A DNA stretch of 64,000 bases, taken from positions 1,658,269 to 1,722,268 of the forward strand of contig CAJINV010000017.1 in assembly GCA_905178155.1 (NCBI GenBank), written 5' to 3'. Under the pieces are notes generated by a model. That model was not told where the DNA came from. It worked only from the letters and a program-made list of their open reading frames with translations, and searched no databases. A program made the position numbers and the translations under genes. Positions 3,358 to 63,600 of this stretch are shown here, piece by piece; within the stretch, counting starts at the first letter, position 1, and the number at the start of each line of letters is the position of its first letter. The DNA is from Amoebophrya sp. A120. Its lineage: Eukaryota; Protista; Dinoflagellata.

Positions 3358-6300
3358 ATGGTGTGGGTTGCAGCTGCAGGCGTGACAGCACTAAGAAGTG
3401 GACGGAGAAGGAGTTCTTCTTCCGGCACCAGCCCGATGATGATTTCAAAATCTAAATCATCTTCATTCCCGCTGCTCATCTTGCTTCTCGTCTCCCTCCA
3501 CAGCCTGTTTCCCGCAACCACCTGCTTTGCGAAGCTACTGCGGGCGGGGTGGCCCCCCGTTGCGGGGGGCCACCGAGGCTGGGGGACAGCAGGACCTTCT
3601 ACAGGAGACCCGAGTAGATCCTACTACGGCGATGCAATGTACCCGCGCCCGGGCGATCCACCTTATCATGGGGTAGCTGGTACAGCAAGAGCTCCTGCAC
3701 GCGCCCCGCCGCAGCGGCAGATGCGGGACCCTTATGCACGAACATCGCAAGCACCTGCGTCGAGCTTTAATTACGCGCCACTCAACTCACCACAAGGACA
3801 AGTCCAGCAGGGTGCGTCCTCCGCCCAGCAACCAACATCCGGTGGCTCTTCTACTTCTTTCCTGAGCTCTTTGTTCGGCACGGGAGGAAGAACATCTTCG
3901 TCAAGTGGAGCTCCAGCAGCTTCGATCTCTGTGGCCCAACGCCTGCGGCAATTCGTCCAAGGCCCGCCGATTTTGCAGGACGGGCTGAAGAAACCGCTTC
4001 TGGCGGCAGAGGTGCGGAAGCTGCACGAGTCCCGCGCCCAGTATTGCTGCTGCTTCAGCCGGCGCCAGCAGTGCTGCTCTGCGTCGCGGCGGGACCGGTG
4101 CCGTACCGACTGCGATTGCAGCTGCGATTGCGGTGGGGGCGGGTACGGGTGGAACTACGGGAACGACTACTGGTCGGGCTACCAAATGGGGGTCCTGAAC
4201 GGCCTCGACTCCCACAGCGGGCACGTGAGCCCCGAGGGCACCTTCACGCGTGATTTTTGCTGTGGCCCCTGCTACAACTGGGGCTACCAGGACGGGAAGA
4301 CGTTTGGCGTATGAAAGCCTCAGGTTGGAAGTCCTCAAAGTGGAAATGATAGATAAATTTGCAATGCAATGAAACGACTCCAGTTGAAGCGCCATTTCTG
4401 GTGTGCGCATGACAAATTTCCCCGGCACTCAAAGCATGTCAGTCTGTCATGCTAGTCAGGGCAAAGGGGTACCCTTCTCTCGTGCTAATCAGCAGCCTAA
4501 TTCTGAACCCCTAGAAGCACAATGGTCGGACTCCATTGCGTCCTCTGCCATACAGTCTTTTACTTTTTCTTTGGTGTCGCATTTCATACATCGCAAATTC
4601 TTTCCACTTTGAGAGTTTTCATTCTGCGGCTTTCATACGGCGCGCAGCTGGCAGACAGCGTCGACCGGCACCCGGGTGCGTATTACGGCGATGGGCTGCA
4701 TCATGGTTACTTGGCACCATTCGACGGTGGACCCAGCGGAGCGGGAGCAGGAAGTACACCTATTAACACGCCGTACAGTTCTTGCGGGGATCCGCAGGTA
4801 GACCACGTCGTCCGCGCCCATGAAACCATCATGCACGGGGGCGACGGGGGGGCTGGTCTAGGGCACCACCTCCACCACGCCGCGCAGCACATGTCGGGTT
4901 CGGGACCCCCGGAAAACCTGCATGGAGACAGCTGCTGTCCGTGCGCCAGCGGCGGCACCCACGATATTTGCATATGCAGTGGACACAAGAAGCAGCGCAC
5001 TACGTTGTATAAACCGCATCTCATCTTCACAAATTTTGGGGAGAACCTTGTGATTTAAAAACGTTGATTCAGTAGTTGACACAGACAACGATATAAGTAA
5101 GTAAGTAATCATGACTGCGATTCATACGAGTGCGACAGCGATCCTTTTGCACTGCATAGTGCACCCTGCCAGGCGACAGCTGTTGCACCAACGACAACGG
5201 CAAGATCGACGGGTGTCATTTTTGCTGCACGCACCGCCCGCCGGGCGACAACGACCCGCAGTGCTGCGGCCTGGTCCAGCCGGATCTGCACCACGAACAG
5301 TGCCACAAGTGCTGCTGCATCGACGGGCAGAATGAGGTGAACCCCTGTGCTTGCTGTTTGCAGACGCAGGGCGAGGGGGCGGACCAGTTTCAGCAATGCG
5401 ACATGTGTTGCTGCGTGCGCTTCTGCTGCCACACCGAGAGCAACCACCTCGCCTGCTGCAATCCCGGGGGCTGCTGCGGCGAGTGCGGCAACCTGGACCC
5501 CCAGCACGGAGAGATTTGCTGTCACGGGTGCGGGAACTGCGACAACCTCAAGTGTGACAACTGTTGCCCAAGCGGTGGAGGCGGCGGCAGTGGGGAGGAG
5601 GCTTGCGCTCTATGTGCTTTTTGCGGAGCTGCACTAGCTTTCGTCGCCATGCTGCTGCTGATGACGATGACGGCAGCTGCGGGCTTCGTCTACTCGGGTC
5701 TCATGTTTTTCCCGCTCGCGGCAAAAAAGTTCATCATCCTGGTCTTATACACGAGCACCACGGGCGTTTTGCTCGACCCGGTCCCCATGCGGCAGCCGGT
5801 GGCCATGCTGATGCTGCCGGAGCCGCATTCCATGACGTCCGGCCTTGTTCCATCCGGCCTCACCGACGCGGAAATCTACGATACAAACAGCGTGAACGCC
5901 TTTAACGAGACGGCCCCCACCCCGTTGGCGGAGGAACTTGCCGAGGCCTATGCCGACGTGAGAGCCATCCCGATCGACCTGCACGCGGTGCAGGTGAACT
6001 CCGACGGCCACGTGCTGCGCGTCTTTCGGGTGCGAGAAGACACCTACGTCCCCGACGCGCGGCAGTCGTGGCGCCGCGCCGGTGCGTACGAGGCCCCGGT
6101 GGTCCTGCTTCCCGGCGTGAACTTGTGGAGCTGGCGCCGCATATGGCGTTCTCAACTGTTACATTCTCAACTGTTACATGAATTTGTAATGCAAGAATGG
6201 CAAAAATGATAGGGGAGATCGTGCGCGCCTTGCATGACAGATTTTGCGCCGATCATCACTGAGAATTTGTCATGCGAAGCAGCTTGATAGTGTCGATTCT

Positions 6301-6869
6301 GAAGGCTATTTTGCTGCCGCACCCCCCCGGGCTTTAGTCGCGCAGTCTGTTAAGCATGACAAATCATGTAACAGTTGAGAATGTAACAGTTGAGAACGCC
6401 ATACCGCATCAAGTGGTTTTCGGACGCCGTCGCGTCCACCCTGTGGCCCTACCAGGCGGGGTATCGGTTTCTGGCGAAGGGCACCCTGATTGCCCTCAAA
6501 CCCGTGCCCCGGGGACACGGACCGGAGTGCAACCTGGACGAGACGCCCGCGGCCGTCGTCATGGGGCAGCACGAAAAGTGGCACGACCCCTTTCTGAAGG
6601 TGGTTCCCTTCCCGGGCTTGGGCGACAGCGACGCCGCGACAAACAAGCAGCACGACTGGTGGCCTATTAACATCTCCAAATTTCCGCGCGACGCCTATAC
6701 ACATCCGGTAGCAAGGTTGATGATGATGATGAATCTAGTAGGGTGTTGCATATGCACTGCCACCTGTGTAGTCGTGCTTCGGCTTTACATCTTCAAACGA
6801 ACACTCTCTCCGCAACTTCCATCACCTGCCTCCTGGCACCGTGCCTCTCTCCGAGGAAGGAGATTATAA
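3358..6869 (+). CDS. Cys-rich secreted/membrane protein of unknown function with three TIR introns; 3' end uncertain
   Basis: ORFs 3289, 4522, 5337 and 6390 fuse in frame after removing 4309-4638, 4972-5159 and 6141-6404. Hydrophobic N-terminal segment (FPLLILLLVSLHSLF), CC-rich middle, TM segments (ALAFVAMLLLMTMTAAAGFVYSGLMFF). Possible further donor near 6707. Confidence 0.65.
4309..4638 (+). mobile_element. TIR introner (GT...AC), TSD GGC
   Basis: GTATGAAAGCC...CTCAAAGTGGAAA pairs with TTTCCACTTTGAG...GGCTTTCATAC. GGC on both flanks. Frame restored (KTFG|AQLAD). Confidence 0.9.
4972..5159 (+). mobile_element. TIR introner (AT...AG), TSD TGC
   Basis: ATATGCAGTG...CACTGCATAG with TGC flanks; joins DIC to CTLPGDSCC. 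Confidence 0.8.
6141..6404 (+). mobile_element. TIR introner (AT...AC), TSD CGC
   Basis: ~40-bp near-perfect TIR TATGGCG(TTCTCAACTGTTACA)x2; CGC flanks; joins WRR to RIKWF. Confidence 0.92.
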
Positions 6870-7014
6870 AATGAAGACGTTGTCCAAATTATAGAGAGAG
6901 CAAGTAGACCACGTAAGTAATGTTCATGGAACAACCATCTCCACATCTAGTATCCCACTGCCACATATTCAACAGGATCTCCAGCCCTACGACGGACCGA
7001 TGCCACCCAAAATT

Positions 7015-10500: not shown

Positions 10501-10677
10501 GCCCGCTGCGAGTTTCTCCGCAAGGGGCAAGGGATGCCGACAACACGCACAAGCGGCGCGCCGTAGGCTCACAGCGAGCCGCTTTAGCGGGACAAGAAGC
10601 GCTCTGGGAGAGCTTGTTTCGGAGCACCTCGGCGTTCGCAGGGTCGTTCCGCGCTTTGGCTTTTGCCCAGTTTTCTC

Positions 10678-10846: not shown

Positions 10847-11706
10847 AAATCTGGCCATGCGTCAATCGATTTTCTTGCCGTATAGTATATAGGGTATTGT
10901 ATCCCACTACGACATTTTCAGGATCTCCAACCCTACGACGGACCGATGCCACCCAAAATTGCGGCCGGCACGCAATTCGGGGCGATTTCGCCCGAGAAGA
11001 TCGACCTCATCAAGTGCCGCAACAGTTGGGAGACGGGCCCGACGAGGTGCGCGTTGCCGGCGTGGAAGCTGCCGACAGACAGCAAGCTTTTTAACCAGCA
11101 GCACCGGCTGCAGGCTCGCGAGGCAGGAATGAGCTTCCCTTCCGAGCTACGTCCAGGAAAAAAACTTGCTAGATATGTTTTTCTTTTTACTCGTCTACCC
11201 CCGCCGTAGACCATACGAGACAACACAGCGTACGGCTACGCTTGTACTCATGCCCGACACCGACCTACGGTCGTCGCCCCTTAATTTCGCGATACTAACT
11301 ACAAACGCCTTCACATCATGCATGTTTCCCAAGAATAAATATGCCAGTCGAAAGAAGTTAGTAGGTACTATGCACAACTTAGAAGTAAAGAAGTTTAGGT
11401 TATTTTCTTGGATACCAGCAGGGGGGAGAAATGACACAGGCGGAATGGGAAAAGATGCCCAAGGAAGTTGCCGATGGGGAAAATAGTCTACCGCTGTCTA
11501 CCATTTGCGTCAAGATCGCAGGTACTTAAATAGAAGCATGCCCTCTTTTCTTTTGGTCTCTTTATTTTTGATGCGTTTTCTTTTACAACAGGAAGTCCAT
11601 ATTAATTTGTTTCGAGCACTCCCACTCGCACTCCTCTCCATGAGCGCGATTCAGCACAAGGTGAAATTTTTCCAATTCCAACCAATACCATTATTATTGA
11701 TAGTAG

Positions 11707-14700
11707 ATGGTTCGCAAGAAGGGGAATACTCGTATTGAAAACCAAACAGATGGAGATGGTGTCGGCAGCGGGCCCAGCTACAAAAATATCCTTCAAAAAA
11801 ATAACACGCCAGAGGACCAAGGCCCTTTGTCTGACGACTACGTGGAGATGCTTGGCATGTATGGTAAAAGATGCATCATCTATGTTTGCCGCGCATGGTC
11901 GTGCACCTCGCAAGTACACAACCACCAAGCAACCGACGCCTGTTTAGTATCGTTGAAGATAGTGCTACTAGTACGAGTGAAGATGTTGATAGTACTTCTA
12001 CCGGTTGTACCTTCGCGGCGTTGCTCGACTTGGTATTCTAGTATCGTCCAAAAGACTAGATCCCCCCCGAACAAGACAAGGAACTCGGTCGTGGGTTCTG
12101 TGCTGCGTTAAAAAGAACCTTTTCCTTCGCATGCGCCAAACCCTTAGCCTACAGAACGTGCCCGTTTTGTTGCGTCACCGCAACGAGTGGATTCCCGATG
12201 GCTCGCAAGTCGTCGACGCCCGCAACGACTACGGCCCGGAGACTTGGCACCACCTGGTGCGGGACGCATTCTACGCGAAACACCCCGATGTAGCAGCAAA
12301 TTTCAGAGCGGAGGGAAGAGAAGCACACGACAGCGCGGGAAGTGACGCTGCTACATCATCGTCTGCAGCTGCAATTCCAAGCGGGGACGCGTCCTCGCAG
12401 GCTGTCGGCCCGGCCTCCGGGCCGCCCCTCCCCGCAGCCGCAAGCGCGGCTACAGGCTACGATTTTTACAACTCGCAGGGTGGAATGAGCAACACCGTCG
12501 CGTATTATGAAGATGGAAAACTACAACCTGCCGGGGACGAAATGACTGCTGCAACAGGCCGGAAGACAAGCACGATCGAGCAACAAGAGAAAGCTGCAAT
12601 GCAAAAATCTACTCGGCTACCAACAACATCCTCGCCTGCAAGGCAATTGAAAATACAGGAGTTTTTGGCTGGTTCGACGGCTAAAGCAGAAGGGCCCGAG
12701 CGTGCTGTAGTTGATCCAGTTTCTATTCATGTCGAGGACGTAGAAGACAACGACAATCACGAACAGCCAGAACAACATGTGGCCGACTACAGTGCAAGGA
12801 CTCACGACAGCAGCACAAGCTCTTCGCAGCACTTCAAAAACCACGCCCATGCTGCTGAAAAACGAGGAGCTTCTTCCTCCTCATCCCGTCCTCTGCAAGA
12901 GGATCAACAGCAGGAGCTGGCGAACAAGAACAACGAGCAACGACAAAAGCGAGTTTCTGGTCGTGTTGCAGAACAAGCTCCGAAGCAACAAGAGATGACG
13001 ATGACCGGCACGTCGAAGAAAAACCGGTTACTTTCGTCACTATCGGGAGCTGCGGGGACCGCTGGTGCTGTGGGGGAAAGAACCAAGAGCAGAAGGGCTC
13101 TGGCGTGGGAGAGAATGAAAAGTAGTAAAGATAACGAGGAGGATCCGATCTCCAGTATGAAAAGCCAAGTGCTGGACTCGCTAGAGCTCATGGACCTGTT
13201 TGAGCAAATCGAGGACGGGTCCTACAAAAAATCACCGCTGGAACTAGTGAAAGACTTGAAGCAGTACTTCCCCGATGTCGCGGACAAAATGCTGCGCGAC
13301 CCCTTTGTCTCCCAGCAAGTGAAAAGCGCAAATGTTTTCGGGTTTACTATGCCAGGTGAATGACCATGGTGCCCACGCCATGTTACCTCTGTTACTTGAC
13401 TACATGACCTGCTCATCTTGATGTCGAGCATCTTGCATGTGCTGCATAGACGAGAGTTTGTTCTTGAAAGAAACCCGCAAGACTACAAGCGGATTCTCCG
13501 CGGTCGCGGTGTGTACAACACATAATTAAATGTGTGATGTGGTATCGAGAGTCGTTGTCGTGGGCGAAAAATTTTGTCTGGCATAGTTTTCGAGGTCTCG
13601 TTGGAGGAGGATCCGGCCAAGCGGGATGTATCCACAGAAAAAAGCCCATCCCCATCCAAGAATGTGTCATGCAAAGCATGCGTAAAATCCTTTGCTTGTC
13701 ATGCAAAAACTGAATAGGGTGTTATTTTTCTGTGGATAGGCGGCAGAAAAGTACTACAACATACCGGAGGACGTCGTAGAAAGAGAGAAAAAGGCTGGGC
13801 GCTTCGATATCCAGACGAAATTTGATGATGATGCCGCACGAGCACAAGAAGTGCACATCCATGTTCATCTTGAGACCACGTCTGCATGACAAATTCGCGA
13901 TCATGCAAATTCAATTTATGTTTCTGTTTCTGTGCGGTAACAGCTACAGCATCAAAGTTGTGTTGCATATTCCACAAAGTGATCGGGGACATGCGGGAAG
14001 AGATGCTGGGAAAGATCAAGTATGAAATGCAAATCTGTCTGGGTCAGAAAGAACGTCGCAACGGCATTTTTTTTCATGGTCGGCTAGAAGCAGGTAGGGG
14101 ACTCATCTCTGTTATGCATGTTACCCAAAAGCACCGTACCGTTGCTCTGTCATGCAAGCACGTAGTTTGCCATGCAGCATAGCCAAAGCCTTTGGCTATG
14201 TTTGGCTATGCTGCTTGGCAAAGCAGCTCAAATAAATTTTGTGCTAATGATTAATCTACAGCCACAGTGTCACGGCGAGACGACATACAGACATATAATT
14301 TGCACTTGATATCAAGAAAGCGAAAAAGGGCGAAAGACCCTCTACTGGCAGTGGCAGCTCGAGCTCCCGAACAACTTCCGATGCTGCACAAGACGAATCG
14401 CGGAAAACCGAACGTAATAACTTCGAAGACGCGTCAAAAAATGTGAAAAGCGGGTGCACCGGTGACCAGAAAGTAGAGCAGGGTCTCCTCTTGCGTAAGC
14501 GAGCCGCTGCGGCAACCGTGGCTTCTTCTTCCTCAAACCCAAACGGTTTACTTGAGGCTCAGAAAATAAACCCAATGCTCGATCATATGGCTACGCGGGC
14601 AGACGGCGCGACGACGTCATCTGGAGCTGCAACCACATCTGGAACGCCGCGCGTCGAAGGTGGACAGCAGGGGAACCACGAAGGCAGGTCAACTACAGTG

Positions 14701-14748: not shown

Positions 14749-17700
14749 CTCCTGTATTTAGTGTCTCGCAACGGTCTTTCTTTGTTCCATCGAAGGACCC
14801 CGGTGGATGTTGGACTGGTCCCATTTGTCAGGCGACAACTACTTTGATTGATGAACTCGAGAATACAAAACTAGGTAAAACAGCAGGAATTACGTTTTTG
14901 ATTCCGTTCACCCTCGTGTCCATGCGCATGCAAAGACCAATTTATCACCCTTACGGTATCGCTCCTCACTCATTTTTCTCGGAAGTTCGCAGGAGCGTGA
15001 ACTACTAGTAACAGGTAAGGAATGGAAACTACAGCAAGTGCTGATAGAACACATCTAGAATGATCGAAAGCTGGGGCTGATATTCTTGTGCCTGGTTCTG
15101 GCGGTAGGATCGCCAAAAACTATATGATCTTCAAAATGTATTCTGAGACTACAGCTCAAATTTTGAATTCTGAGTAGACTACAGCTCTCTCAAAATAATT
15201 TCAGAGACTATAGCTTCTGTTAGTGTTACTTTTGTTTTGCGAAATGCAAGTACTAAGGGATGAAAGTTGCATTTTGTTCGCGAGCCGAGGACCAGGTCCA
15301 GGACGGTAAGTGCTTGTAATGATAATGGATCATCCGCAAAACCCAAACTTTTAGTCCTCTATTGCTCGATCTTTTACTTTTTCTGCCGAAATCAAAAATG
15401 TAAGTATGTCGAAAAAAGAAAAATGCTCCCACTTCTACCCCTGGGTGACGCCAGTGTTTTCCCTATTCGTTAACGAGCCTGTAGACGTGTTTCGGACATC
15501 TTTCTACGTGATAAGCATAGGACTAAGAAGATGGAAGCACTTGCATTATCTTGCTCGCTCCTGGTTGCACTCGCAGGACGAGCGCCTCCGTAGATCTTTT
15601 TGATTTTTTGTCCGAGCAGATGTATGCGAAGCTTTTCTTGTCCGATCATCATCATGACAGGACTAAGAATGTGGCGTCGTGCTCGTGGTGCAGCGAAATG
15701 TCATCTACAAGGCACCTCAGAATTGGCCTTTGAAACAGGATCTTGCAGACACTCCTCGTGGAGGTTCAGACCAGAATATAGAATTTCTCTGACTGCTGTG
15801 CAAATCATGTGCTGACAGCTCGCTATTGCAACACTGTCCTGATTTTCATTTACTTATTCCTGTGTTCCTTCTCCTGCTCGAGGCGAACTCCTGTGACTCA
15901 TTTCTGCACCTCGACCTCCTACTAGCGTGGCCCAACAGATCGATGGCGAGGTCGTTCTTCTTCCGCCTGGGTCCAGGTATTTGTCATAGGATGGATCACG
16001 AACGTCGAATACGACGTTACTTCAACATCGTGCGCTGCGAAAAAAGACGGCGTTGGTTCAGGATCATCTACAAAACTCGAAATCAGAAATCGTCGCAGGG
16101 CATAGACAGACCCAGACGGACGCCGTCGTAGCTTAAGTAGCATGTTGAAATACAAGACGCAAGCTGCGAGACGGTGTTGGCTCGTCGCTTTCGTCGCATT
16201 TTTTAGTGATGTAGTTTTTCTTCTCACGGATCTCGGTCGATCACGTCAATTAAATGAAGGTCTCACGATTTTGGTGGTCCACCAGCTTCCATATTTGCCT
16301 TTCGTTGGTGCGCGAAAATTCGCCCGACGGATAAAACTCGGTCCAGGTAGACCGGATATGTTGGCACGGACGAAAAAAGCGTATGGCAGGAGAAAAGCTG
16401 TAACTGAGGTTTTCGAGTCACGACCTTGTTCGATTTGGAGGTTGTCATTTGTCTGTGGCCCGTCCACCTGAAGGCCAAGGGTAAAGTTTTTACATGACCA
16501 CATCAAGCAACGCACAACTATCTCGGGTGACTTTTTGTTGCGTTGCTGAAGAGTCCTTTGCTGTAACTGCTAGTGCGAGTTCGAGTTTGAATTTTTCCTT
16601 TTGCAGACTGAAAAACCGAATACACTGCCTTTTTTCGCCTATACCCCCGTCGGAGACGATTGTCTCTTCCTCGACTCAGCCTCGCGAAAGCTTGCGGCGC
16701 TGGAAACCCGAAGACAACGGCGCGCGAATTCGGCCACTCCACTGCTCCGACCGCCGCCGCCAACCACCGTGTTGCCGATCGTGGGGTCGCCGCAGCATAG
16801 GAAATGCAAATGGGTCTGGAAGTGGAATGTTGCTTCTGCAAGAGAAACAGTTTGTAATGCTCCCCCCCCATGCTCCTAACGTGACCCTCCTGAGCGCTTC
16901 AATGCATGATGCGAAACAGCGTTTCTAATCTTCGTATGTAGTGGCATGCAAGAACAACGCCGCGGCTCCATCTCATGCAGATGGACGGCTCAAAAATATT
17001 GTTGTCTCCGTTTGTTGCCTACCACGGTGCGTTCGTCATGGACAATTTTTGTAGCATGACAACATATTTCCGTACTCCGAATTGAGTTTTTGCAAGGCAT
17101 ACAGGAGTTTGGGCAGCAGCTGGCGCACGAACTTGGATTCGGCTCTCCCGTGCGGATTGAACGACCGCCGCCTGTATGCGAAGGAAAAGAAGGAACGGTC
17201 CCGGGCCTCACTGCGCTGCTGCTCACACGAGAAGAAACTCAATTTTTCTTGCGAACAATTTGCATCATTGTCAGCCCTAGCCGGAATGAATTCACCGCAT
17301 GGGGTGCGGCATGGCGCCCCTCCCCCTCTATCTCAGACCTAGATGAGGCAAAAAATTATCATGAAAACATTCCACAGACAATTCATATTCAAGTTGAGGT
17401 GTTGCGTGCCGAAGTTCCTTCTATTTTCCACCTCGACAACGTCCAGAGCCGCGACTGTTTCCACAATATTTGGAAACAATTTGCGACATGATTGGCACGG
17501 TTTTGTGCATTATCGAGGGCAAACGAAGGGTTTGACGTGATGAGTCAGAAATAGATCGATGCAGATGACAGAATGAAGATGAGCCGCTTTATGTTTTGCT
17601 TTTTCATTCTTGCTCGGTAGGGTAGGGAGAACAACACTACGTGGCCAGGCCGCGATCACCACCAGAACAATTCAAGTATGTCAGGCGACAACTCACCGCA

Positions 17701-18045
17701 AGACGAGCGGCGTGTCAGCACGCATAAATCTTCGAAACTCCAGATCAAAACTTCAAACCCTTCAATTATTGTTTCTCATATCCCTGTTGCCCCGATGTCT
17801 GGGCTGCTTTTGCGGTGACATCTGCGCTTGCTTCACCAGCCTCCAATTCCGACGCCGGTTATCAAACATGAAAACGAAAATCGTTCGGAATTTTGTTGAA
17901 ACCTGGCATGTAATCCTTACCATGGTGGGGACAACAAGCTGAAAGAACTGAACATCATGATACCGTCAGAGATAGAATTGAACATCAACATGAAAAACTC
18001 CTTTATTAAATTATCCATCTTCAATTTCGTCCATTGACATTGTGA

Positions 18046-18165
18046 TTGCATAATTTTACGGCTTTATTTTGGAAACTCCAGCGTGTGGCTGTGGTTACAC
18101 ACTGGAGTTTCCAAAATAAAGAAGAATCCGAGCGCCAACGTGGCTTGCATAATTTTACGGCTTTA
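18046..18165. repeat. 19-bp perfect hairpin between 21-bp direct repeats
   Basis: TTGCATAATTTTACGGCTTTA at 18046 and 18145; inverted repeat TTTATTTTGGAAACTCCAG/CTGGAGTTTCCAAAATAAA at 18063-18120. Confidence 0.75.
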
Positions 18166-24536: not shown

Positions 24537-27500
24537 ATGGCCCCCGGACTTCTCTCTAGCACCTCCACCGCGAAGGGCGCGGCCGCACCGGGCAGCAACC
24601 CGAGTAGTGCGCTGCTCAACGTCAAAAACAAAAGTAACAAGCGCCCCGCGGGCCAGGGTTCCGACGACGTCCTGCAGCTTAACGACCCAAAGTTTTCGGC
24701 GGGCGCGAGCGAAGAGGTATTTTTTCTACTTGTTCGTAGGTGAGTGTGCGTATTTCTCCAGGAGATCCTGGGGGGAATTGCTTCTCTCAACTCTCCCGGG
24801 AGAAGCAATTCCGAGGCTCCGAAATTGCGGGATTTTGGCTTGCGGGCAGGCTGATTTCTGCTGCTATTCGCAGAGGGGCTGCGATTTCCCTGTGATTTGC
24901 AAAGGAAATTGAATAGAAGCAGATCAAAAGTTCGGCCGCGACCTTTGCAAAAAGGCCGCGAAACCGAATCGAATAGCAGTTGAATAGAGGCCCCCCAAAA
25001 GGGGGCCCAATAGCAGGTTGAATAGCAGGGTGAATAGCAGGGTGAATAGCAGGCCCAGGGAAAGGGCCAAACCCGACCGCACTCCCGGCCTGATTGCGTG
25101 CGTTTTCGCCTGCAGTTTGGGGGGGGGGCAAAAGCGCAAAAAAAGCCCGCAAAACTTGCGCAAAAATTAGCCGAAAAGCGCGGGGCGTTTTTCCCGGTCT
25201 TTTCGGAATCTGTGGAGCCACCCCGTCCGCCGTTTCTCATGCTGTTTTGCAGCATATTGCTTGACTTTTCCCGGATCTCCTGGAATATTAAGGTAAGCAG
25301 CATTACAAACCAACACGTAGAATCGCAATCACGACCTGGGGCGGTCGGGGCAGACCTGTTAGCTTTGTCAGATTTGAGTAGTACAGGTGCACTTTTGGGC
25401 GATTGACTTGAAATCCAAATACAACTATCGCGTACTCCATCTCAGGTATTGGAAGCGGAGAACGGAGAAGACCAGGCCCACCAGGCGGCCCCGAAGAACA
25501 TCCGCAAGAGGCAGTTGACCGACCCGCTCAATGACGAGGCTTTGAAAGACGCGATCGCTACGTGGTTCCAGAGCAAAGGTAGAAACTGTGAAGGTTGGAA
25601 GTTCACCCCCGACCTGCTCACCCGCAAGTTCATCTACGACAGCGCCAACCATCAAAAGCAAAAGCTGGATATTGTCGAGCACATCATCCTCAAACTGATC
25701 CCGAAGAACAAGAAGACTTTTAAAAAATTTGAACTCGGGAAGCAGAAGGAGGAGCAGGTGAAGAAGCTGCTTCTCGCTGAGCAGGACGCGATGGCGCAGG
25801 AAAAGGAGGGGTTGTTGCGGGACTCGGTTGCGGAGGTTTTCGGGATTACCAAAAAAGAGAAACAGAAAGAGATGGCTATTGCTCTCTGCAATGGCCACGC
25901 TGATGAGCTGCGGCGCCTGTACCAGCCCAAGAATTCCTTGTTCGCGGCACCCGTCCACCAAAACAAGAACATTGTTGCGGCCCCCGCCGCCTCGAACAAT
26001 TCGTCGCTCTTGGGAGACACGGACGCTCTGATGGAAGACGCATCTTCTACCGGCCCCCAGGCAGCTGCATTGTCTTCTTCTTCTGCGGCGATCAACCAGA
26101 ATACGGCGGCTCTGGCGGGACCCTCTTCTTCTTCCTCGATCAATAGTTCGGCCGTCGCCGGCGCTGCCGGTGGAGGGGGTGGCTTTGCGGCCTCCCAGTC
26201 CCACTCGCAGAACAACAGTAACATGGTGGTGCCCTCGCAGTCCAGCTATCCATTGCAAAAACCTACAACAAAAGATACTGCTACCCGGAGAGATTACTTG
26301 CTTGTTCGATTTTTGCATGACAGATTCAAGTTTATAACTGGCAGCGCATCATTGTTTTGCAGAATCTTTTGTTGATATGATCTTTTGCATTGGATAAGAT
26401 TCAAGCTTCAGAAATTGACCCTGCGACCCTGGCTATGATCAACGCGTCCACCGAATTGTTGGAGGGTGAGGATGATCCAGTGGATATCGACATGGACGGG
26501 GGACAAGCTCACATTCCGTCTTCGGAACTGCGGCGGCCATTCACCTCCGATGAGATGGGGTGCTGGAATGTCGGCAAGGGCCTGCTGGGGATTCTCAAAT
26601 CCTGCGACGACCCGGAGGGTGACAGCGAGACTATCGAGTGCGTTTACGCGATGGACCGCGCGGCAGAAGGTATCGCTTCACCTTTTTCAAATGGTGACTT
26701 CGATTCAGGGTCCACCACGTGACCATGTCCACCCGAGCACTTTTTTGCATGACAGATTTGTTGTTCGAAACAAAACAAAATAAAACGCACTCCAGTTGCG
26801 GGAATTACGACTGACGTGCACAAGAAGGACCTCAAGACGGCCGGTCGTGGGTTGCTCACCTCGCGGTGGTCTGTGGGAGGGTTGACCCGGAAGCAGTATG
26901 CGGAGCGGTATTGTATTCCTTTGCACCTACTAAAACACATGGAGTTTCTTCTTGCAACGACCACAGGCCGAAACTTGTTGGATTCTTGCACGCCGTATCT
27001 TTCTTTGCCTGCCCCTCGCGTTGAGAAAATTACTTCAAAACCAACCCACACAGCCACCGCAAGCACCTGGCTGCGCTTGATGCCGATTCTTTGACCGCCC
27101 ACGAGGTGGTCGTGGCCAACACGGTGGGTGGAAAATTCAAGGTCCCGGAGTCCAAGGCTCTCGAGGTGGTGAAAACCGTACGCGAAAAAATGCAGCATCC
27201 CTACTGGCAATTGCGCATGACGAAGAGATGTTTTTTTTGCATGAGAAAGAGATGTTTTTTCGCATGGCGACGAGATTGCTTTCGGAGCCACGAGGCACGC
27301 GGCATTTTTGGGATGCATATATATTGAAAAAAAGCCAAGTGCTGGGCTTGTTCAAAACCGAACTCGACTCGTTGAAGGACATGGCCGATTTGGTGCAGGA
27401 GAAAACGTCCACTCTAGCGGTACTGTTTCATCGTGTAGTGATGCCGTGTGACATCCCAAGAACTAAATACCCCATCACCCATCTCGTAGCCTGCCTCCTG

Positions 27501-29186: not shown

Positions 29187-31613
29187 TGGGCTGTGGGGAA
29201 CCGGTCGGCCGGATTGTTCTGCAGCAGTTTCTACTTGATGTCCACACTTAGTTTTTTTACGTTATCTTCTAGAGAGTATTTATTTCCATGTCTACTCTCA
29301 CCAGGACCATGAGCTCCGGTCTCTGGAAAACGAAAGAACCGCGATCGTGTTTCTCTTTGGGATTTTGAATGTGTGACTACAATTCTTATTAGCAGTGCGC
29401 TACACTCCGAACTATCTCAGCTTTTTCGTTAGTCTTTACGAAGAGAATTCTCTTGATTTTCACCGCGCGAGGAATGCACCTCAGGGACCTGGTCCAACAG
29501 AACACGAATTTGAGAAATCTGATATGGCTTTGCATGGCACCAACGAGCGACTTCGTCGGGTAGAAAAGAAGCTGGGTTTTTCATGAATGAGCAAGAACTC
29601 CTTGCATGTTTCACCATGCAACCACAGACCGACAATTTCTTTGTCCACACGACGAGCACTTTTTGAAAATTGACAAAACGAAAAGGCCGATGACAAAACC
29701 GATGATGAAGCTGTCTCTCAAGTCCAATGCTATGAATCCCGACAAGGGCCGGGGAGTGGGACAACATTGCGAAATGTTGCGGCACAATGACCACCAGCCA
29801 ACATCTTTTGAAACCATTTGGACCAGATCTAGAACACATCAGTCACCACGCATGACAGATTCGCTGTTTTTGTAGTATAGGCTTGCAAGAATGGTGGCAC
29901 TCAGCTGGTTGACATGCCTGAGCCCATTCGCCCGCGTAGTTTTGATCGCGTTTTCGTACTGCGTGTGGCGCTTCCGTCAGACAGGCATCTTCTCGTGTGT
30001 TTGGGTCCGAGCCCGCTGGGCCATCTTGCGTTTCTTTCGCAGAGGCTCTGCAAGGCTGCTCGGACGGGGCCTGAGCTTCGTGCTGCGAGGCCTTTTCCGA
30101 TTGTAAAGGGACGACTGACAAAAAGGCCTTCTTCCCGGCCCTTCTCTGTCATGACCCCTAGGGCCCCTCCCCTTCATGGAAATTTCGCGACTATGGGCCA
30201 GCCACAAACCTGACAAGACCCACCTCCTGCGGCGGGTTTGCGCAGTGGCACGGGCCGGGCCCCTTTGCGCCGGCGAACTTGTTCGCCTCGCGGCCCCACG
30301 AACAGGCTTTCTTTTTTGAAAATCCCGCACGGGATAGCGCCTTAATAGGCGCCCGCCGCCGCCCCGGGGCCTCTGACTGAGGCCCCGGGCACTGTAACTT
30401 GTCAGCACATCAAACCACCGGCGTTCCATTGGATGTCAAAAGAACGCTGCGAGCAAGCGTGCGTGCGAGAATGGAAAGAGAACTGAGAGCGAACTTGTGA
30501 AGATCCTCGCGCTATCGTCGTTCGCTGAACAACAAACAACTGCGAAGCAAATGTGAACCCTTTAGGAAAGAGAAAGATTATTCGTGTCGCCAACACGCCG
30601 GCGCGGTTGGCAAGAAACTGGCCAGACGAATTTGTGTCGTCTGTGCGTGTACGCTGCTGCTGGATCGCGCAGCTTGTTCTTCGTAGATCTGCAGTGCATT
30701 CGTTTGCGTTTCAAGATGATCACGAAGACACACTACGTGTAACTACCCAGTTACAGGCACTGGATGCTCCACGACTTGCTGGCCAATCTTGATCTCCGTC
30801 CATCGCCCCGACCCGGGGCGCTGGATCCATGCTGCCCGACCTGCCGGCCAGCCTCGACCCCCATCCAACGCCCCGGCCCGGGGCGCAGGAAGGATCCGTC
30901 AGGAGCCGGTGGGCACCCCCAGTCGCTCTCCATCCAATGCCCCGGCCCGGGGCGTTGGATCCATGTCGCTTGGTCGCGGCATCAATGGCACAGGGTTTAT
31001 CCCCTTGGCCATTTTTATCAACTGCAAATAATGTAATTCCGAACCCGTCATCTTCTCGTCGTGCTCCTGCTCGTGCACAAGCACAAAGGAAGTGAGTCAT
31101 AGAAAAGTCTATCACTATCTCTATCATGTAGTTGACGGTAATGCACGTCTTGCAAACCCAAATTACCGGCTCCTTTTTGATGTCCACACAAGCAAGGCTG
31201 GCCTTAGTTGCGCAAGACCGATACAGGCATCGATGACCCTAAGCAAAATCTTGTAGAGCTTGTATGCAAACACAAGCAGCAGCAACAGTTGATGCGACTC
31301 AGCGACACTACTTGCAGTCGATAGCGCGCTCGTCCGTTGTAAAAAGTTTCTTCATCCTCATGATCCTGTTCCTGATCGTCCGTATTCTGTGCAAAAGTAT
31401 CGTAGAGTCGTCTCACTGCAAGATTACGGCTTTATTGCAGAGTGCTTTTCTTTCTTTCCCCGATTGCTATTCTTCGAGCACGAGCATGATCAGGGTAACA
31501 AACTCCGTTATTGCTTCGTCATCGTCCCCACCAAGGTGAATAGAAATTAGGCGTTTGCTGTAGTGCTAATGTTGCTAATCTTGCTTTTATCTTTATAGAT
31601 CCTCCATCTAGAA

Positions 31614-57600: not shown

Positions 57601-60600
57601 TGTACTGCTCCAAGTGCTTTTTGAAATAGTGCAGGAACGCGTAAGTGTCTTTGTGAATCGAGATGGCTTGCAGATTTTGCCTCGATCCCGGGTAGGAGGG
57701 GAACAGAAAATCCTGGCGCCAGGAACGAATTGCGGTCGGGGCGAGAGAGGAGATAAGAGAAGAAGAACCTCCCGATGCTGATGATCCCGATGACATTTGC
57801 AGATACCGGTCGTAACGGGGCGGGCGAGAAGCGCCGTCGGCTGAAGAACTAGTCGCGCCTTCTGTACTAGAGATCCCACTAGCTGCCGCAAAATCGTCCT
57901 CCTCGTCTTCGAATCCAAACAACCGCCTCTCTCGCAACATACCAGAAGCATTGCCTGTTGTAGTAGTGCCGTTTATCGACGAGGAATTCGCATCTTGGTA
58001 CTGCTGTCCACCACCAGCAACATCAGAACTAGTTTCGTTAGAAGCTGCAGTCGCGTTGCTCGCATTTTTTCTATCACTATCACTAGCCACCTCAGGAACC
58101 GTCGTCGTTGTGGTACTGGTCGTGAACGCCATTTTCAACTTGTAAATCCGGATCCTCTTCCCCGCCAACCTCCGTTGCGAATACGCGAACGCGTCGTTGG
58201 ACCAGAACAACTCGCCGGTTTTCACCAGCGACTCGGCACTGCCCCGCTCCGGCGACGGCTCGGACAGCAAGCCAAACCCTTCCGCGGACAAAGGCGTCGT
58301 GCAACAGACATCCTGGTCGCGAAACAGACCGATCCGGAACTGCACCGACGCGTTTTGCGCCTCGTGGATGTAGTGGGTTAGAGTGTGATACTCAATATCC
58401 TCCTCCGTCGCATTCGATCCGTTCGTCGAATTGACGTCAAAATCTTCGTCGTCTTGAAGAACGAGAGAGGACCCTGATGCTGAACTATGGCTGCTCATGT
58501 TAGTCGTGTCATTTGAAGCACTAGTGTTCATCATTCCACCACCCATCGACGTGTTAGTACTCGTCCCATTTGATGTTTGTTGGTGCATCGTCAGCACCCT
58601 TCTGTAGTCGACGATCCCAACATCGCTGTCCGTGTCTTCATCGAACCCGAACTCGACGAAGTCTTCGTTCTGTTCCAACACTCTTGGTTGCATTTTACTT
58701 CCCATCCTGTTCCCAGCTACGGTCGTGTAATAAACCGTCCTGACCCGTCTTGCAGTCTGTCGCGAGATCGCATGGAAGATCAGTTTCGACAAGTGGCGAT
58801 GCGCGTGGCAATGGTGATGATCGTTGCTCGTGAAGTTTTCGTTTGTTTCTCGAATTGGATTTGGCTCGCGGAAGAACAAGCTGTCGTACCCTGACTTGAA
58901 GAGCGGGTTCTTGACCCGGTTGAAAGCGCCAACAGAGAGGTACGGTTCTTGATTCGGCTGGAACAGCGTGTTCGAACTGGTTTCGTGAAGATGGAGCGAA
59001 CTGGTGTCCTCTGAGTCTGTCGCACTGTTGGCCGTTGCGGTTCCATTTGCGTTCATTCCCGAAACGCCGCCACTGTGAAGTCTCTGCACCGCATGCGACG
59101 TGCCATTTCGCGCAGTGAGGTTTCTCTCCTCGATCGGCATCGCGCACATCGATGAGCTAGTGCTGTTTTCGCTCGCCACTCCTGTCGGAAACCCCTCGCC
59201 CAAAACCAAAGTCTCCCCGAGCACCAAGTCTTTTAAAGTTTTCGTGTCGACAAACCCCATATCGATATCAAAGTAGAAGTCGTAATACTGCGGCTCGCTT
59301 GCCACGTACGCATCGGCGGAGAAGTTCGACAGTTGATAGGTGAAATCCGGCGGCCCGTACGGCACTTGTCCACCAGGGAGGGAGAAAACATTTTTCTTGT
59401 CCTGCGACCGGAAGTTTTGGTTCATGTTCACTGTGCCAGTCATGAGGTCTCTTTCCATATCCACCACCTCGACACGCAACCCGCCGAAAAACCCCGGCTC
59501 GGCGTATTTGTTGGACACAAAGCTGGGCACGCCGGTGGATCCGCGGTAAAACCCATTTTTCCGCTCCGCATCCACAACTGTATCCAACAAAACCTCATTT
59601 GGATCAGAAAAGCGGTGGATCGAATGCGGTCCGTAGTCCTCTGCTGGGACGGTGAGTTTCTTGATTCCATTCCTTTCCTCGACGAAAACAGAACTCGTGT
59701 TGTGCTCCGCGTGCTCCCACGCCGGGCCGTCGTAGGAAAAAGCGGAATTGTCCACGGTGCCGTCGATTTGGATCGCGATTTCGGGGGAATAATACCCAAC
59801 CCACTCGTTGCCGTACAACTCAACTTCGCAGATGTGCAGTGGAATAGGGGACCCCAGGCCGATCTCCTCAAGCAATGGATTCGCACTCGACGCGTTCTGG
59901 TGCGCCTTTCCAAACAACCGGAACGTCCGGCCCGTGATGTCGCAGTCTTGGGATAACGCAACAGAAGTTGTGGTCGTCGGCGTCGGGGAGATCATCGAGT
60001 TTGTCGCGTTTGTCAAATTCAGCTCAACGAAGTCCGTTTCTTGGACCAACGGGCATGCTTTCGTCCCGTCAACGACTAAAATTGTGTTGGACAGCATTGC
60101 TTGCATGTCGAACGAAGTCGTGGTGTCACCACCAGCACCGAAAGAAGATCCACCAGCACTTGGACCGCCAGAACTAGAACTAGAACTGCCAATCTGCCCC
60201 TGTTGCGGCCCATGCACCATGATCCTCCGCAACCTCGTCGGCCTGGGGAGTTGGATTTCCAACACCGAGTAGATGAAGGACCAATCCGTCGTTTCAAACC
60301 ACTTGGTGCTGTTGTCAAATTCGTCCGTGTCATTTATGAGAGTGCACAGCTCGTCCCCCTCCCATTTGTATAGCATGAACGGCAATACAAGCACCAGCAA
60401 GAGTGCCGGTTTTGCATGACAAATTTGCACTGGAGTGTAGTGTTGTTTGGGCTGCCAGAACTTGTCATGCAAGCGGTGCCATGAGGCAAAGGCAAAGGGT
60501 GGATTGGGTATTTTGCATGACAAATGAGGGGGAGGGGGAGTTGTGCACTGGCATATCGTTTGTCAAATTTGTATTGTTCGGGTCGAAAAACTATGAAATG

Positions 60601-63600
60601 CAAAAGATTCGTAGTACTCCTACTCTGAGTTGTGCAATACATATACAACTTAGCTTAGCATGACACATGATATTTGTCATGCTGTTTTACCTTGGAAAGG
60701 ACATTTGTCAAGCATAGTTGCGATTAGGATTACTACGAGAAGTACGATATTATTGCAATGCATAAAAACTCCTCCGTCACATTCGGCTTTTGCGTTGCGG
60801 CGATCGCAAGGATCTCCTCGTCTGTGAGGATGCGAGATTTGACGCAGGTCTCCCTATTTCCGTCCACCGCGTTCAAGTCTAGTAAACTGCTGAAATCCGC
60901 GGAATTCTTCTCCACCGTCGCGCGCTGGACGATCGACGGCAGCTGCCTCTGCAAAGCAGCCTCGACCACTTTCTCGACTGAGTACGAAACCGAGTCGAGG
61001 TCTGTCGGGAGCGTAGTGGAGTTTTGCTCCGCCAAAGGTAGCATCTTGACCGTGGTCTGTTTTCTCGCGGTGACCCACTGCTCCTGCTTCCGGTAGTAGA
61101 TCGGCTCTTGGCCTCTATCCGGGTTCAGGGAGCTGCGGTCTATGATCTCTTCTGCGGTGAACAGAACTGTTTGTGAATATGTTCCAGATCCGGCGAAAAC
61201 CTCCCCACCATCGGGATTGTTGTTCATCGCACTTATCACGTTGTTTTTCGTTTCCCGGTTGTTGCAGTGTTCGGTGGTTTTGAACCAAAAGACATTTTCC
61301 ATCGGGTTCTGTACGAAACAACCGCAACTCTTGTCATTCAGGCACTTCTTTACCGCGTCTTCGAAATTCATGTTGAAGTACGCGTACTGTAAGTCGTACT
61401 CGAGATAGATCGGCTCGCAGACCGGGGTGTCATTGAAATTCGTCATATTATCGACTTCTAGTTGCGGGATGCAGTTGTTTTCCGTGTAGTTGCTGTCGTT
61501 TGATAGCAGTTGCATGGAGATGGACGTCGAAAATTGGCTGGAAATAACTCCTGAAGAACCAGCAGCAGAACCTCCACCTCCTCCGACGTGAATCTGTGTT
61601 GCCTGCGTCGCGCCGGAGATTGAGGAGGAATAGGCAGACGATCCGGTCGCTTGTGTCGTATTTTGTTGCGCACCACCAGAAATGGCATCCAAATCTCCGC
61701 CAGGGCCGACAACCTCCCCCACGAATCCGACCATCTTGAAGTGCGGAATCCGAATTTTCGCAAATTCGTCGATCACGTCCGGCCAACTTGTGAAGGTCGT
61801 GGTTCGGGTATGGAAGCGGTGAAATCAGGTAGAGTAAAGAGTAGCAGCGAATATCAATTTGCAATTTTTATGCAATGTCTTCTAATGCAGAAGCAAAAGC
61901 ATGGACATCATCACGGAAACATACAAAGATTGACGCGTTGATTTAGTGTGGTAACATTGCAACTTAACTCGTCTACTGCAACAGAGTGCAAACAGAAACA
62001 AGATTTCCCCCGACATAAGTTGTGGTCGTCGACGTCGTCGTGGTTGTCGTTGTGGTCGTCGACGTCAATGTAAATCCCTCCGGAAAAACCGCCAGCGCTA
62101 AAGACTCCCCGGTATCGGTCGTCTGCACCAAATCCATCACCTTCACATCCGCAAAACCGATCGCAAAGGCATCCGCACTCGCGGATAACACCGGGTCCGC
62201 GGCGATTGCTGTGGTTAACTCAGAGACGATTAACGAGCCAAACGTCTGGAGTTTCGAGTTGATTTCTGAACTTATCGCCTCAGCGATGTTCACCAGTGAG
62301 GAAACGGAGAAGGACTCGTCCTGCGCCTTCAAGAACGCGTCTTTGTCTCTCGTATACAGCGCGTCCGGCTCAGCAATGCTGTCGGACTGGCCGACGGAGT
62401 TGCGAGAAATGGTCATATCGTACTCGACACTGAGCATCACCTGGGACGTGGAGAGAAGACGCTTGTTCTCTGCGTCTGATTCTGCTGCTTGTTGATGAAA
62501 ACCTCCGCTTTGCAGCCTTCTTTTCTTCTTCTTCATTTTCTCCTCCTCATGCTCCCTTTTCTGCTTCGCCAAGTCCACCTGCGTCCTGACGACGTCGGAT
62601 ACAGCAGCAGCTTCAGATGAGCCCCCGGAATAGAAGTCCTCCCCGCCTGCAACTTCCGCTACTTGCTGCTTCGCCAACTTCCGCAACACCAGACTCGCTT
62701 CGTCGTCCGGGAATAGAGAATCTTCCCGCAGCGGCCGGGCTTCCTGCCGCGTCCGGATTTGCAGGTCCAAGTCATGGTCCGGCGTCGCCTGGTGGATTTC
62801 AAATTTTGAAGATAATTTTGACGGAGCTGATGCGAGGTGCTGTAACCCCCCCAAGTTAAAGCCAGGCTGTCCACCTCGTCCTCCTCCTTCCTGTAAAAGC
62901 GCCCTCGCCCGCAACGTGGCTAAAGACGTCACGACAATTGGCTTCGTCAAATTGAACTGGTTGCAATCTAGTCCCCCAGCCCCAGTCGCCTGCTGCGTGC
63001 TGTTCATGCTGTTCATCGCCTGACAGATCCCCAGCGCGATCGCCTTTTTGAACGCCTGACAGTCGGTAAAATTTGCTTCCAAGCTGTTCATCTTCTCCGT
63101 CGTGTCGCAATTGTCACTCACCCCCGCTTGCAGACTGACCGCACCGGAGAGGACGATGTCGGAGACCGTGCTCATACTGACGTTGATAAACCGCAAGTCC
63201 GCGTTTTTGTTCAGCAACGTCAACGCATCCTGCTCTTCCGCGATTTTGACAAACGGAGGGGATTGGACGACAATGGTTGAAACCGACAAGCCCCGGTTGC
63301 ACAGTTCGTAGATCCCGCGCGGGAACCGGTACTCAATCACCATAGAAGTCATCAAATCCGCGGTCAACCCCGCGTAGTACGTGTTGTTCACCTTCACAGG
63401 GCCGCCGTACTGCGCCAAGTCTTCCGTTTCCGTGTTGGCCAACGGTTTCGCGCCGTTCATCAATCGTATCGGGTACTTGCACGCTTTGCACTCGGTTTGT
63501 AATTCCGACAAGCACAGGTCGACGAGGGATTGTCCGACTTTCATGTTTTTCCCCAGTAGCTGTAGTTTTTCCAAATTCCCAGCGTAGGGAAAAAAAGGCG

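Follow-up and report, generated by a model that had tools for sequence, protein, structure and literature searches.

In the window, a 64,000-nt stretch of contig CAJINV010000017.1 of Amoebophrya sp. A120, genes on both strands are split by inserts of 100-420 bp with TAT...ATA terminal inverted repeats (TIRs), and these inserts are removed from RNA in a single polar register. Read in transcript direction, one cut lies 1 nt upstream of TAT and the other 4 nt downstream of ATA, on either strand (1+4). It is likely that A120 employs a second splicing mode that serves most of its introns and measures the cuts from the transposon ends, matching the 5-bp stagger of the transposase. Any exonic insertion, in either orientation, would be erased scar-free without G+1, AG or U1, be it by a spliceosome that follows a new rule at the 3' end or by a new nuclear nuclease/ligase pathway. 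The introns themselves have already been published; what is added here is the 1+4 rule.

The inserts belong to the introner class described for A120 (Farhat et al. 2021, PMC7789003). The earlier note had rightly seen in them non-canonical introns of transposon origin, as known from Amoebophrya. Like that class, they have TIRs and direct repeats and are removed from RNA without GT-AG ends. Sixteen sites in the window combine a perfect 5-bp flanking repeat with at least 8 of 14 paired bases, against 0.8 ± 0.9 (maximum 3) in 30 shuffles, i.e. a frequency far above chance. The 33 supported introns are 115-424 nt long and TIR-bounded, and the short direct repeat at their exon-intron borders is a 5-bp target-site duplication (TSD). 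A 3-bp TSD was dropped in favour of 5 bp on account of the flank identity in the window introns (mean 0.78 at 5 bp versus at most 0.33 at other lengths, 30 introns) and of the copies in a related assembly, where 95 of 118 members of one element family carry a perfect 5-bp TSD with near-random targets. The element is therefore TAT...ATA plus a 5-bp duplication of random target sequence. Family copies also occur inside the window, and at copies elsewhere loose read ends halt at TAT/ATA. According to logo and consensus, the inverted repeat consists of TAT, about seven variable bases and then a run of A. Short length, TIRs, a TSD of fixed length and the lack of coding capacity are the features of a MITE. 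A Pfam scan of window ORFs revealed no transposase family among those scanned; its only matches were a bacterial-type PH domain in the deposited protein P0001 and DUF3223 in the first gene. Family fam38 of PMC12130899 is a lead towards an autonomous partner that would share the element ends and encode a transposase.

At 20 of 20 RNA junctions (among the joints listed) the contigs remove the unit proposed in the earlier note plus 3 nt. Sixteen of these junctions are listed joints and four were inferred from contig piece or exon lengths. The deposited proteins P0001 and P0002 agree with the 1+4 register at all 18 TIR junctions crossed and add 13 junctions beyond the RNA set, which gives 33 supported introns (Table 1). 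Only a 5' offset of 1 is compatible with all 20 RNA junctions; offsets of 3 or more are ruled out at 11 of them, and at 13347 (+) and 31379 (-) the placement is unique. The register is unchanged where the TSD matches at just 1/5 positions. It is likewise unchanged in seven RNA-supported introns (11147, 11786, 16797, 17510, 17859, 38280, 39075) with a terminal pairing of about zero, as predicted by long-range folding, which is unreliable. GT..AG dinucleotides sitting at the ends proposed in the earlier note were passed over, at 13628 according to the RNA and at 40983 and 41852 according to P0001. The junctions do not fall at unrelated GT/GC-AG sites; they are tied to the TIR ends, at an offset other than that of the earlier note.

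The RNA runs carry one sample label and are available as unstranded contigs; strands were assigned from ORFs and adjacent GT-AG introns, the assignment being probable for the gene at 16-18 kb. The deposited proteins were probably built on the same RNA data. Run X6 shows a 1-nt difference at the 11147 junction. The transcripts lack the inserts, as the earlier note had implied, with partial retention of the 31379 intron in X3 (depth of the unspliced contig 17 versus 7.3 for the joint). Two raw RNA runs from 2026 (X11, X12) match element repeats only and yield no junctions in the window. Two genes, one at 19.8-24.3 kb and one at 24.5-29.2 kb, lie outside the RNA cover, the second also without a protein match, and the inserts at 60.3-62.0 kb lie outside protein support, P0002 starting at 59458. 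Against the earlier count of at least 26 inserts on both strands, 33 are supported and about seven more predicted.

Table 1. TIR introns (supported and predicted) and canonical introns of the window; X3 and X4 are RNA runs, "joint" an RNA contig junction
Position	Strand	Feature	Evidence
4309..4641	+	TIR intron GT-GC, TSD 4/5	inferred, contig piece lengths X3, X4; unit of the earlier note 4309-4638
4972..5162	+	TIR intron AT-GC, TSD 4/5	inferred jointly with 4309, piece lengths
6141..6407	+	TIR intron AT-GC, 40-bp TIR, TSD 5/5	joint 6136>6404, skip 267, three RNA runs
11147..11418	+	TIR intron CT-AG, TAC variant, TSD 4/5	inferred, piece lengths X3, X4
11786..12137	+	decayed TIR intron AT-CC, ATG end, TSD 1/5	joint 11785>12138
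13347..13589	+	TIR intron CT-TT, TSD 2/5, unique 1+4 placement	joint 13346>13590, no slide
13628..13742	+	TIR intron GT-CG	joint 13627>13743
13807..13973	+	TIR intron AT-CC, TSD 4/5	joint 13806>13974
14020..14315	+	TIR intron GT-AA, TSD 5/5	joint 14014>14311, skip 296
16381..16647	+ (gene strand probable)	TIR intron GT-CC, TSD 1/5	joint 16379>16647
16797..17105	+	TIR intron AT-GG, TAG variant	joint 16796>17106
17174..17442	+	TIR intron GT-GT, ACA end	inferred, exon sides 67, 68 and RNA contig span; open frame
17510..17784	+	decayed TIR intron TT-CC	joint 17509>17785
17859..18155	+	decayed TIR intron TT-TT, TSD 1/5	joint 17858>18156
31379..31638	-	TIR intron TT-GA, unique 1+4 placement	joint 31378>31639
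35889..36164	-	TIR intron CT-TC	P0001
36698..36954	-	TIR intron GT-GA, TSD 5/5	joint skip 257; P0001
37132..37369	-	TIR intron AT-CC	P0001
37447..37805	-	TIR intron TT-TT	P0001
37969..38245	-	TIR intron AT-GG, TSD 5/5	joint skip 277; P0001
38280..38522	-	TIR intron TT-CG, TSD 5/5	joint skip 243; P0001
38680..39005	-	TIR intron CT-GC, TSD 5/5	joint skip 326; P0001
39075..39498	-	decayed TIR intron AT-AG, ATT end	joint skip 424; P0001
39823..40067	-	TIR intron AT-CA	P0001
40688..40954	-	TIR intron CT-TG	P0001
40983..41314	-	TIR intron GT-GA	P0001
41383..41602	-	TIR intron TT-GC, TGT variant	P0001
41852..41987	-	TIR intron GT-GC	P0001
42205..42368	-	TIR intron CT-CA	P0001
43123..43276	-	TIR intron TT-GA, TAC variant	P0001
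43318..43645	-	TIR intron GT-CA	P0001
48709..49063	-	TIR intron GT-TG	P0002
49492..49653	-	TIR intron AT-AC, TSD 5/5	P0002
20507..20885	+	predicted TIR intron(s), one of 379 nt or two (20507-20666, 20730-20885)	profile scan; both readings open frame
26246..26400	+	predicted TIR intron	profile scan
31012..31324	-	predicted TIR intron	profile scan; extends frame
60331..60556	-	predicted TIR intron, TSD 4/5	repeat scan and frame; upstream of P0002 start
60588..60765	-	predicted TIR intron, TSD 5/5	repeat scan and frame
61826..62018	-	predicted intron, T-TATG start, weak 3' repeat, 3' end uncertain by 3 nt	frame joins flanking ORFs
6708-10921		canonical GT-AG intron, GTA start	
11522-11749		canonical GT-AG intron, GTA start	
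31827-31935		canonical GT-AG intron, GTA start	
32089-32341		canonical GT-AG intron, GTA start	
43870-43991		canonical GT-AG intron, GTA start	
49247-49457		canonical GT-AG intron, GTA start	
49874-50075		canonical GT-AG intron, GTA start	
50214-50387		canonical GT-AG intron, GTA start	
50708-50893		canonical GT-AG intron, GTA start	

With these borders the terminal bases can be read directly. G+1, A-2 and G-1 are lost as requirements in the TIR introns: +1 is mixed (G10 A10 T7 C6), -2 is A in just 4/33, 3' AG occurs in 2/33 and there are 13 distinct 3' dinucleotides. GT-AG ends are absent from all 20 RNA junctions and from the whole set (0/33), so that the GT/GC...AG termini of U2-type introns are missing, and U at +2 is present in 33/33. 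The invariance of +2 T and the disregard for terminal Gs claimed in the earlier note were thus borne out; the invariant A at -2 and the three GT-AG inserts vanish at the supported boundaries. At the 3' end, -7 is A in 33/33 and -6 is T in 32/33. Strictness of the -7 A is weakened by genomic copies elsewhere, since among the confidently stranded variants -7 is changed in 2/11 and -6 in 1/11. In introns and copies with a broken +2/-5 pair, the altered base is -5 in 2/2 window cases and in 4/4 confidently stranded cases elsewhere, which argues that the +2 U is kept on the transcript strand only; two low-confidence variant calls place the change on +2. The 5' end reads N-TAT-S, and the 3' end comprises a T-rich tract at -18..-15 followed by S-A-T-A at -8..-5. 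The -12..-6 consensus fits the standard U2 branch helix poorly, G being commonest at -9. U12-type introns have an RTATCCTT donor and AT-AC or GT-AG ends, and they are not matched by mixed +1 bases and a single AT-AC among 33. Bulge-helix-bulge introns of the tRNA type have a 4-bp helix between the 5' exon end and the intron 3' end and two 3-nt bulges; they are not matched either, as the two segments concerned repeat each other directly and are not complementary. Minor snRNAs are reported absent from A120 in the genome paper (PMC7789003). Nine canonical GT-AG introns, four known from RNA joints and five from P0001/P0002, share genes and transcripts with the TIR introns, in agreement with the earlier note, and all nine donors start with GTA.

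The earlier note had proposed that N-TAT...ATA-N is cut out symmetrically and that +2 T and -2 A are invariant; one extra codon would then stay in the message. This reading is scarcely credible. It fits none of the 20 RNA junctions and none of 15 tested P0001 junctions, whereas the core plus 5 nt fits 15/15 of the latter, and the RNA cut is polar. Its N bases belong to the 5-bp TSD that flanks the TAT...ATA element. Excision of the symmetric unit does restore the frame, and eight of the nine top classes given for A120 in Table S4 of PMC7789003 are NT-AN; however, removal of 3 nt more also keeps the frame (1598 versus 1589 aa; 1443 versus 1427 aa), and therefore the frame argument cannot decide between the borders. 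It is also very improbable that the joints are artefacts of template switching by reverse transcriptase between direct repeats across a hairpin, or insertion-free DNA alleles. Either route would drop the element and one TSD copy, and fresh copies carry perfect repeats and hairpins. Yet joints with a repeat of 0-1 nt (13347, 31379, 17859, 11786, 16381) keep the fixed, strand-dependent register, three runs have the joined form in their assembled contigs, and long ORFs are rebuilt. Moreover, the inserts, missing from the RNA contigs, are present in the DNA-like run X1, which is continuous over 10933-18547 without other letters and without any of the listed joints.

As to the machinery, we lean towards a relaxed U2 spliceosome that retains the +2 U and, instead of seeking an AG, measures the distance to the 3' cut. 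The N-TAT-S start would be recognised in the way in which the GTA donors of canonical introns in these genes are. The T tract with S-A-T-A may anchor the cut at a fixed distance, and a branch A may lie at -7. A fixed, short distance from branch to 3' end is known from other organisms, the branch A lying at -6 in Yarrowia and at -8 in Trichomonas and Giardia (counted from PMC2483917). A target NNAGG with the same geometry would yield a textbook GTAT...NNAG intron, so that the 1+4 rule would equal the canonical rule with three terminal bases freed. Terminal pairing might help to draw the intron ends together without being obligatory. A less probable alternative is a spliceosome-independent nuclease and ligase of the sort proposed for euglenid nonconventional introns, which would recognise the stem base and make a staggered cut, 1 nt on the 5' arm and 4 nt on the 3' arm. 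It would accord with the disregard for both terminal Gs and AG and with the strong terminal pairing predicted in young copies. Euglenid introns pair +4..6 with -8..-6 and also have an uneven overhang (PMC11282704). The genome paper lists U2, U4, U5, U6 and most proteins of the spliceosome for A120, in favour of the spliceosome; it did not find U1 snRNA, which speaks against the spliceosome and would suit the nuclease (PMC7789003). Old elements keep some pairing (0.46 at +5..+11 versus 0.34 in the control, permutation p 0.03, n=10), so that structure may matter, another point for the nuclease. The seven introns with near-zero predicted pairing and identical register speak against a nuclease, and they leave the hairpin-defined signal of the earlier note only partly supported. 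Pairing alone leaves unexplained why +2 U is fixed and its partner -5 A varies, and TIR and canonical donors have TA at +2,+3 in common. Improbable, finally, is a spliceosome whose two cuts are placed by a protein adaptor on the internal GCATGAC/GTCATGC motif. The motif is enriched (45 matches in 7.8 kb of TIR intron versus 1 in 9.4 kb of exon), but it is absent from 10/30 introns, occurs in both orientations and at variable distance from either end, which also excludes it as a branch site; a transposase-binding role would account for it equally well.

The genome paper reported over 60% of A120 and A25 introns as non-canonical and left borders and mechanism open (PMC7789003). Its introners come from A120, the strain after which the deposited proteins of the window are also named, and share with the window introns the inverted repeat of TAT, about seven variable bases and AAA, the short direct repeats and the mixture with GT-AG introns; here we add the 5-bp TSD and one polar 1+4 register at every junction seen. 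The A120 families in Dataset S2 of Gozashti et al. 2025 (PMC12130899) are TIR DNA elements, too. Fam38 is annotated there with "5-bp TSD, TA/TA termini", and the automated rows for fam56, fam74 and fam160 give a TSD of 5 and place the splice sites 1 nt upstream and 4 nt downstream of the element, fam85 being equivalent. Other families among 50 of the 58 rows have TSDs of 2-6 and five mechanisms, and no common rule is stated in them. In the literature texts searched, key figures excluded, we found no common border rule for A120 introners. The introners of Micromonas, Aureococcus and Symbiodinium (PMC11282704, PMC9860276) are likewise MITE-like with TSD and TIR, co-opt splice sites from the TSD and often leave mRNA length unchanged. 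According to these texts, however, they require GT/GC or AG in element or target, whereas the A120 termini are random target and need neither G nor AG. Fritillaria borealis (PMC13326754, PMC11282704) has transposon-derived non-canonical introns and an altered U2 spliceosome, a precedent for the relaxed spliceosome favoured here. Its main classes are AG-AC and AG-AT with a YAY 3' end, whereas A120 keeps the +2 U and frees the last four bases. Euglenid nonconventional introns (PMC11170887, PMC11282704) resemble those of A120 in free end dinucleotides, uneven overhang and a proposed transposon origin, and also in terminal pairing, which in A120 is predicted to be strong in young copies. They differ in consensus and offsets and in their reported circular products, and the texts searched report no fixed +2 U.

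The single register turns the varied end dinucleotides into a rule, their variety being that of random target sequence. As 1+4 equals the TSD length, the element is removed together with the final base of the left TSD and bases one to four of the right TSD, and a fresh insertion leaves the mRNA unchanged; since both element ends are alike, an exonic insertion becomes an intron in either orientation. Such scar-free removal, independent of orientation and target, explains how the elements were able to multiply within exons in their tens of thousands. The rule permits a genome-wide re-annotation of borders and points to exact positions, namely the +2 U, the -7 A, the T tract and the stem. If the spliceosome is responsible, it manages without contacts of G+1, A-2 and G-1, which are credited with docking the 3' splice site; otherwise, A120 would possess a new route of nuclear mRNA splicing.

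The TIR introns of the window are excised as the core element (TAT...ATA) plus 5 nt. This was read from RNA contigs of X3, X4 and X6, which share one sample label and are three of the four presumed RNA runs that cover this DNA, with the DNA-like run X1 for contrast. The exon matches of these contigs contain no differing letters, and the contigs skip GT-AG introns as well as TIR introns, which bears out the view of an earlier note on this DNA that both kinds run side by side. Among the joints listed, 16 lie at TIR elements (6 and 10 in two alignment sets), and the lengths of contig pieces and joint sides allowed four extra junctions to be deduced (4309, 4972, 11147 and 17174, introns being named by start coordinate). 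At 20/20 junctions the skip equals core plus 5. Most joint rows are flagged 'between: not known'; contig arithmetic closes this gap across 13347-14315 (143 nt = 38+64+41), contiguous contig pieces close it at 6141 and 16381, and introns 4309 and 4972 together give 524 nt (333+191), not 518. Template switching or empty alleles are an unlikely source of the joints; X1 runs unbroken across 10933-18547, with none of the listed TIR joints. Two raw RNA runs matched only repeats in the window.

Two window exons are 100% identical to deposited Amoebophrya sp. A120 proteins. One of these proteins, P0001, fits core plus 5 at 15 of the 15 junctions tested, as do three further protein junctions. The deposited proteins were probably built on the same RNA data and thus add coverage rather than independence. 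The border chosen in the earlier note, core plus 2, fits none of the 15 P0001 junctions. It had been argued there that excision of this unit restores the frame. Open frames are indeed obtained, but core plus 5 is open too (1598 vs 1589 aa and 1443 vs 1427 aa under the two border models), and since the units differ by 3 nt the frame is unable to place the borders.

That the inserts in genes are real, as previously claimed, was confirmed. When the window was scanned for TAT-like...ATA-like ends, 16 sites combined a perfect 5-bp flanking repeat with pairing at 8 or more of 14 bases; 30 shuffles gave 0.8 ± 0.9 such sites. The inserts are absent at the RNA joints. Loose read or contig ends of other copies delimit the element proper as TAT...ATA: left-hand ends halt at 36702, 38684 and 43322, right-hand ends at 36953, 38244 and 6403, in some rows with a shift of 1-2 nt. 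Flanking-repeat identity in 30 introns averages 0.78 at length 5 and is at most 0.33 at other lengths within 2-9. In a related assembly (177 loci), one family carries a perfect 5-bp duplication in 95 of 118 copies, several misses being wrongly paired ends that are still counted, and target composition is near-random. Because the flanking repeat is 5 bp, the N formerly counted as part of each element end is a base of the target-site duplication (TSD).

A perfect TSD lets the cut slide across six positions, a probable source of blurring in earlier work. Junctions with decayed TSDs pin it: all 20 junctions (among the joints listed, plus those deduced) are compatible with one 5' offset only, namely 1, and 11 of them exclude offsets of at least 3. 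Since this placement is unique on the plus strand (intron 13347) and on the minus strand (31379), the cut is oriented by the transcript, falling 1 nt upstream of TAT and 4 nt downstream of ATA, and the strand-symmetric NT...AN signal has to be abandoned. Strand was assigned from ORFs and GT-AG introns of the same transcripts; for five introns at 16-18 kb the plus strand is probable (229 aa plus vs 176 aa minus), and the 1+4 rule also holds without them. In the 33 supported TIR introns, +1 is G (10), A (10), T (7) or C (6), followed by A at +3 in 32 and T at +4 in 30; near the 3' end, A occupies -7 in 33, T -6 in 32 and A -5 in 31. Of the two bases taken to be invariant, T at +2 stood (33/33), whereas A at -2 occurs in only four. 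The 3' dinucleotides number 13, and the few GT-AG ends reported before dwindle to none; ready GT...AG ends of the core-plus-2 unit are bypassed at 13628 (RNA), 40983 and 41852 (protein). Canonical donors start with GTA in 9/9 cases.

What sets the cut? Elements with a 1/5 TSD retain the 1+4 register, and therefore the repeat does not. The stem is not clearly the determinant: predicted terminal pairing is about zero in seven RNA-supported introns, though a slight excess of pairing over control persists in ten old elements (0.46 vs 0.34, p 0.03), so that the hairpin-defined signal proposed earlier is only partly supported. Excision by a hairpin nuclease/ligase, as proposed for euglenid introns in the available text of PMC11170887 and PMC11282704, is to our mind a doubtful explanation. 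Symmetry of the elements at the DNA level should spread end variants evenly over both sides unless RNA processing selects. At the +2/-5 pair, changes fall at -5 in 2/2 window cases and in 4/4 of the related assembly, there among 11 confidently stranded variants (16 in 244 elements; strand calling correct in 23-26 of 28 tests); five variants with uncertain strand lie at +2 (two), +3 (two) and -5 (one). Changes at the +4/-7 pair split 3:0 in the window and 4:2 in the related assembly, and hence A at -7 is favoured, not strict.

Beyond the observed anatomy and register, we lean towards a relaxed spliceosome in which U+2 is retained and the 3' cut is placed by its distance from the T tract and ATA of the repeat. 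With the 1+4 geometry, an element inserted in NNAGG would give GTAT...NNAG, so that a spliceosome that dropped its need for G+1, A-2 and G-1 would be the simplest path. A putative branch A, 6 nt before the intron end, would have a spacing intermediate between that of Yarrowia and that of Trichomonas/Giardia (PMC2483917, in part), and the available text on Fritillaria describes a U2 spliceosome able to widen its range (PMC13326754). Two points are unclean for this picture: X6 differs by 1 nt at the 11147 junction, and intron 31379 is partly retained in X3.

Further features of the window (coordinates window-based)
Coordinates	Feature	Observation
1134-1925	ORF with DUF3223 (PF11523)	End of first gene
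3440-14750	Two apparent genes forming one transcript	Cysteine-rich, membrane-anchored protein, ~1540 aa; no Pfam match in two ORFs searched
6186-6360, 60415-60680 (examples)	TIR introns with internal GCAT(G/T/C)AC and complement, both orientations	45 matches in 7.8 kb of TIR introns, a strong enrichment over exon (1 in 9.4 kb); possibly a transposase or RNA-binding site
6708-10921	4.2-kb GT-AG intron	Four extra copies (6973, 7709, 8866, 9662) of its acceptor and the next exon's first ~40 nt; RNA joins the last acceptor copy (10919-10921)
19842-29190	Two multi-exon genes	No RNA cover in the X runs aligned; internal motif within likely decayed inserts
24718-25445	Short tandem and GC-rich repeats	
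35751-44378	P0001, 1420 aa	17 introns, 16 of TIR type; repeated bacterial-type PH domains (PF08000)
36702-36735, 38161-38180	Near-identical element end in raw RNA reads of X11	Reads match no window exon, hence a family also present in a second strain or species bearing this label
46105-46245	132-bp hairpin, 24-bp arm	TGT...ACA-like ends; outside supported introns
60733-64000	Frame of deposited protein P0002 (3169 aa)	Runs upstream to >4170 aa after removing three predicted introns, so the deposited model seems truncated at its 5' end

The TIR introns of the window are members of a published class. According to the available part of the A120 genome paper (PMC7789003), more than 60% of introns are non-canonical, inverted-repeat motifs begin with TAT, direct repeats measure 3-5 nt, a clear splicing signature is absent, splice sites vary relative to the hairpin, and U1 snRNA was not found. 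For A25, its Table S4 gives TT-NN ends, from which an invariant 5' end and an unconstrained 3' end would be expected. In the 50 of 58 A120 rows of Dataset S2 available (PMC12130899), one family is annotated with TA termini and a 5-bp TSD; 1/4 offsets with a TSD of 5 appear in three automated rows, amid many conflicting calls. A common border rule was not found stated in the accessible parts of the literature searched, including PMC9860276, PMC11453091, PMC12787238, PMC12005148 and PMC12621601, and the portion available of a Roy preprint listing does not mention Amoebophrya. The corrected splice rule is thus apparently new to the literature, although figures 3 and S19-S23 of PMC7789003 may bear on its novelty. 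The elements themselves were known; the addition is the corrected splice rule, and the mechanism is now testable.
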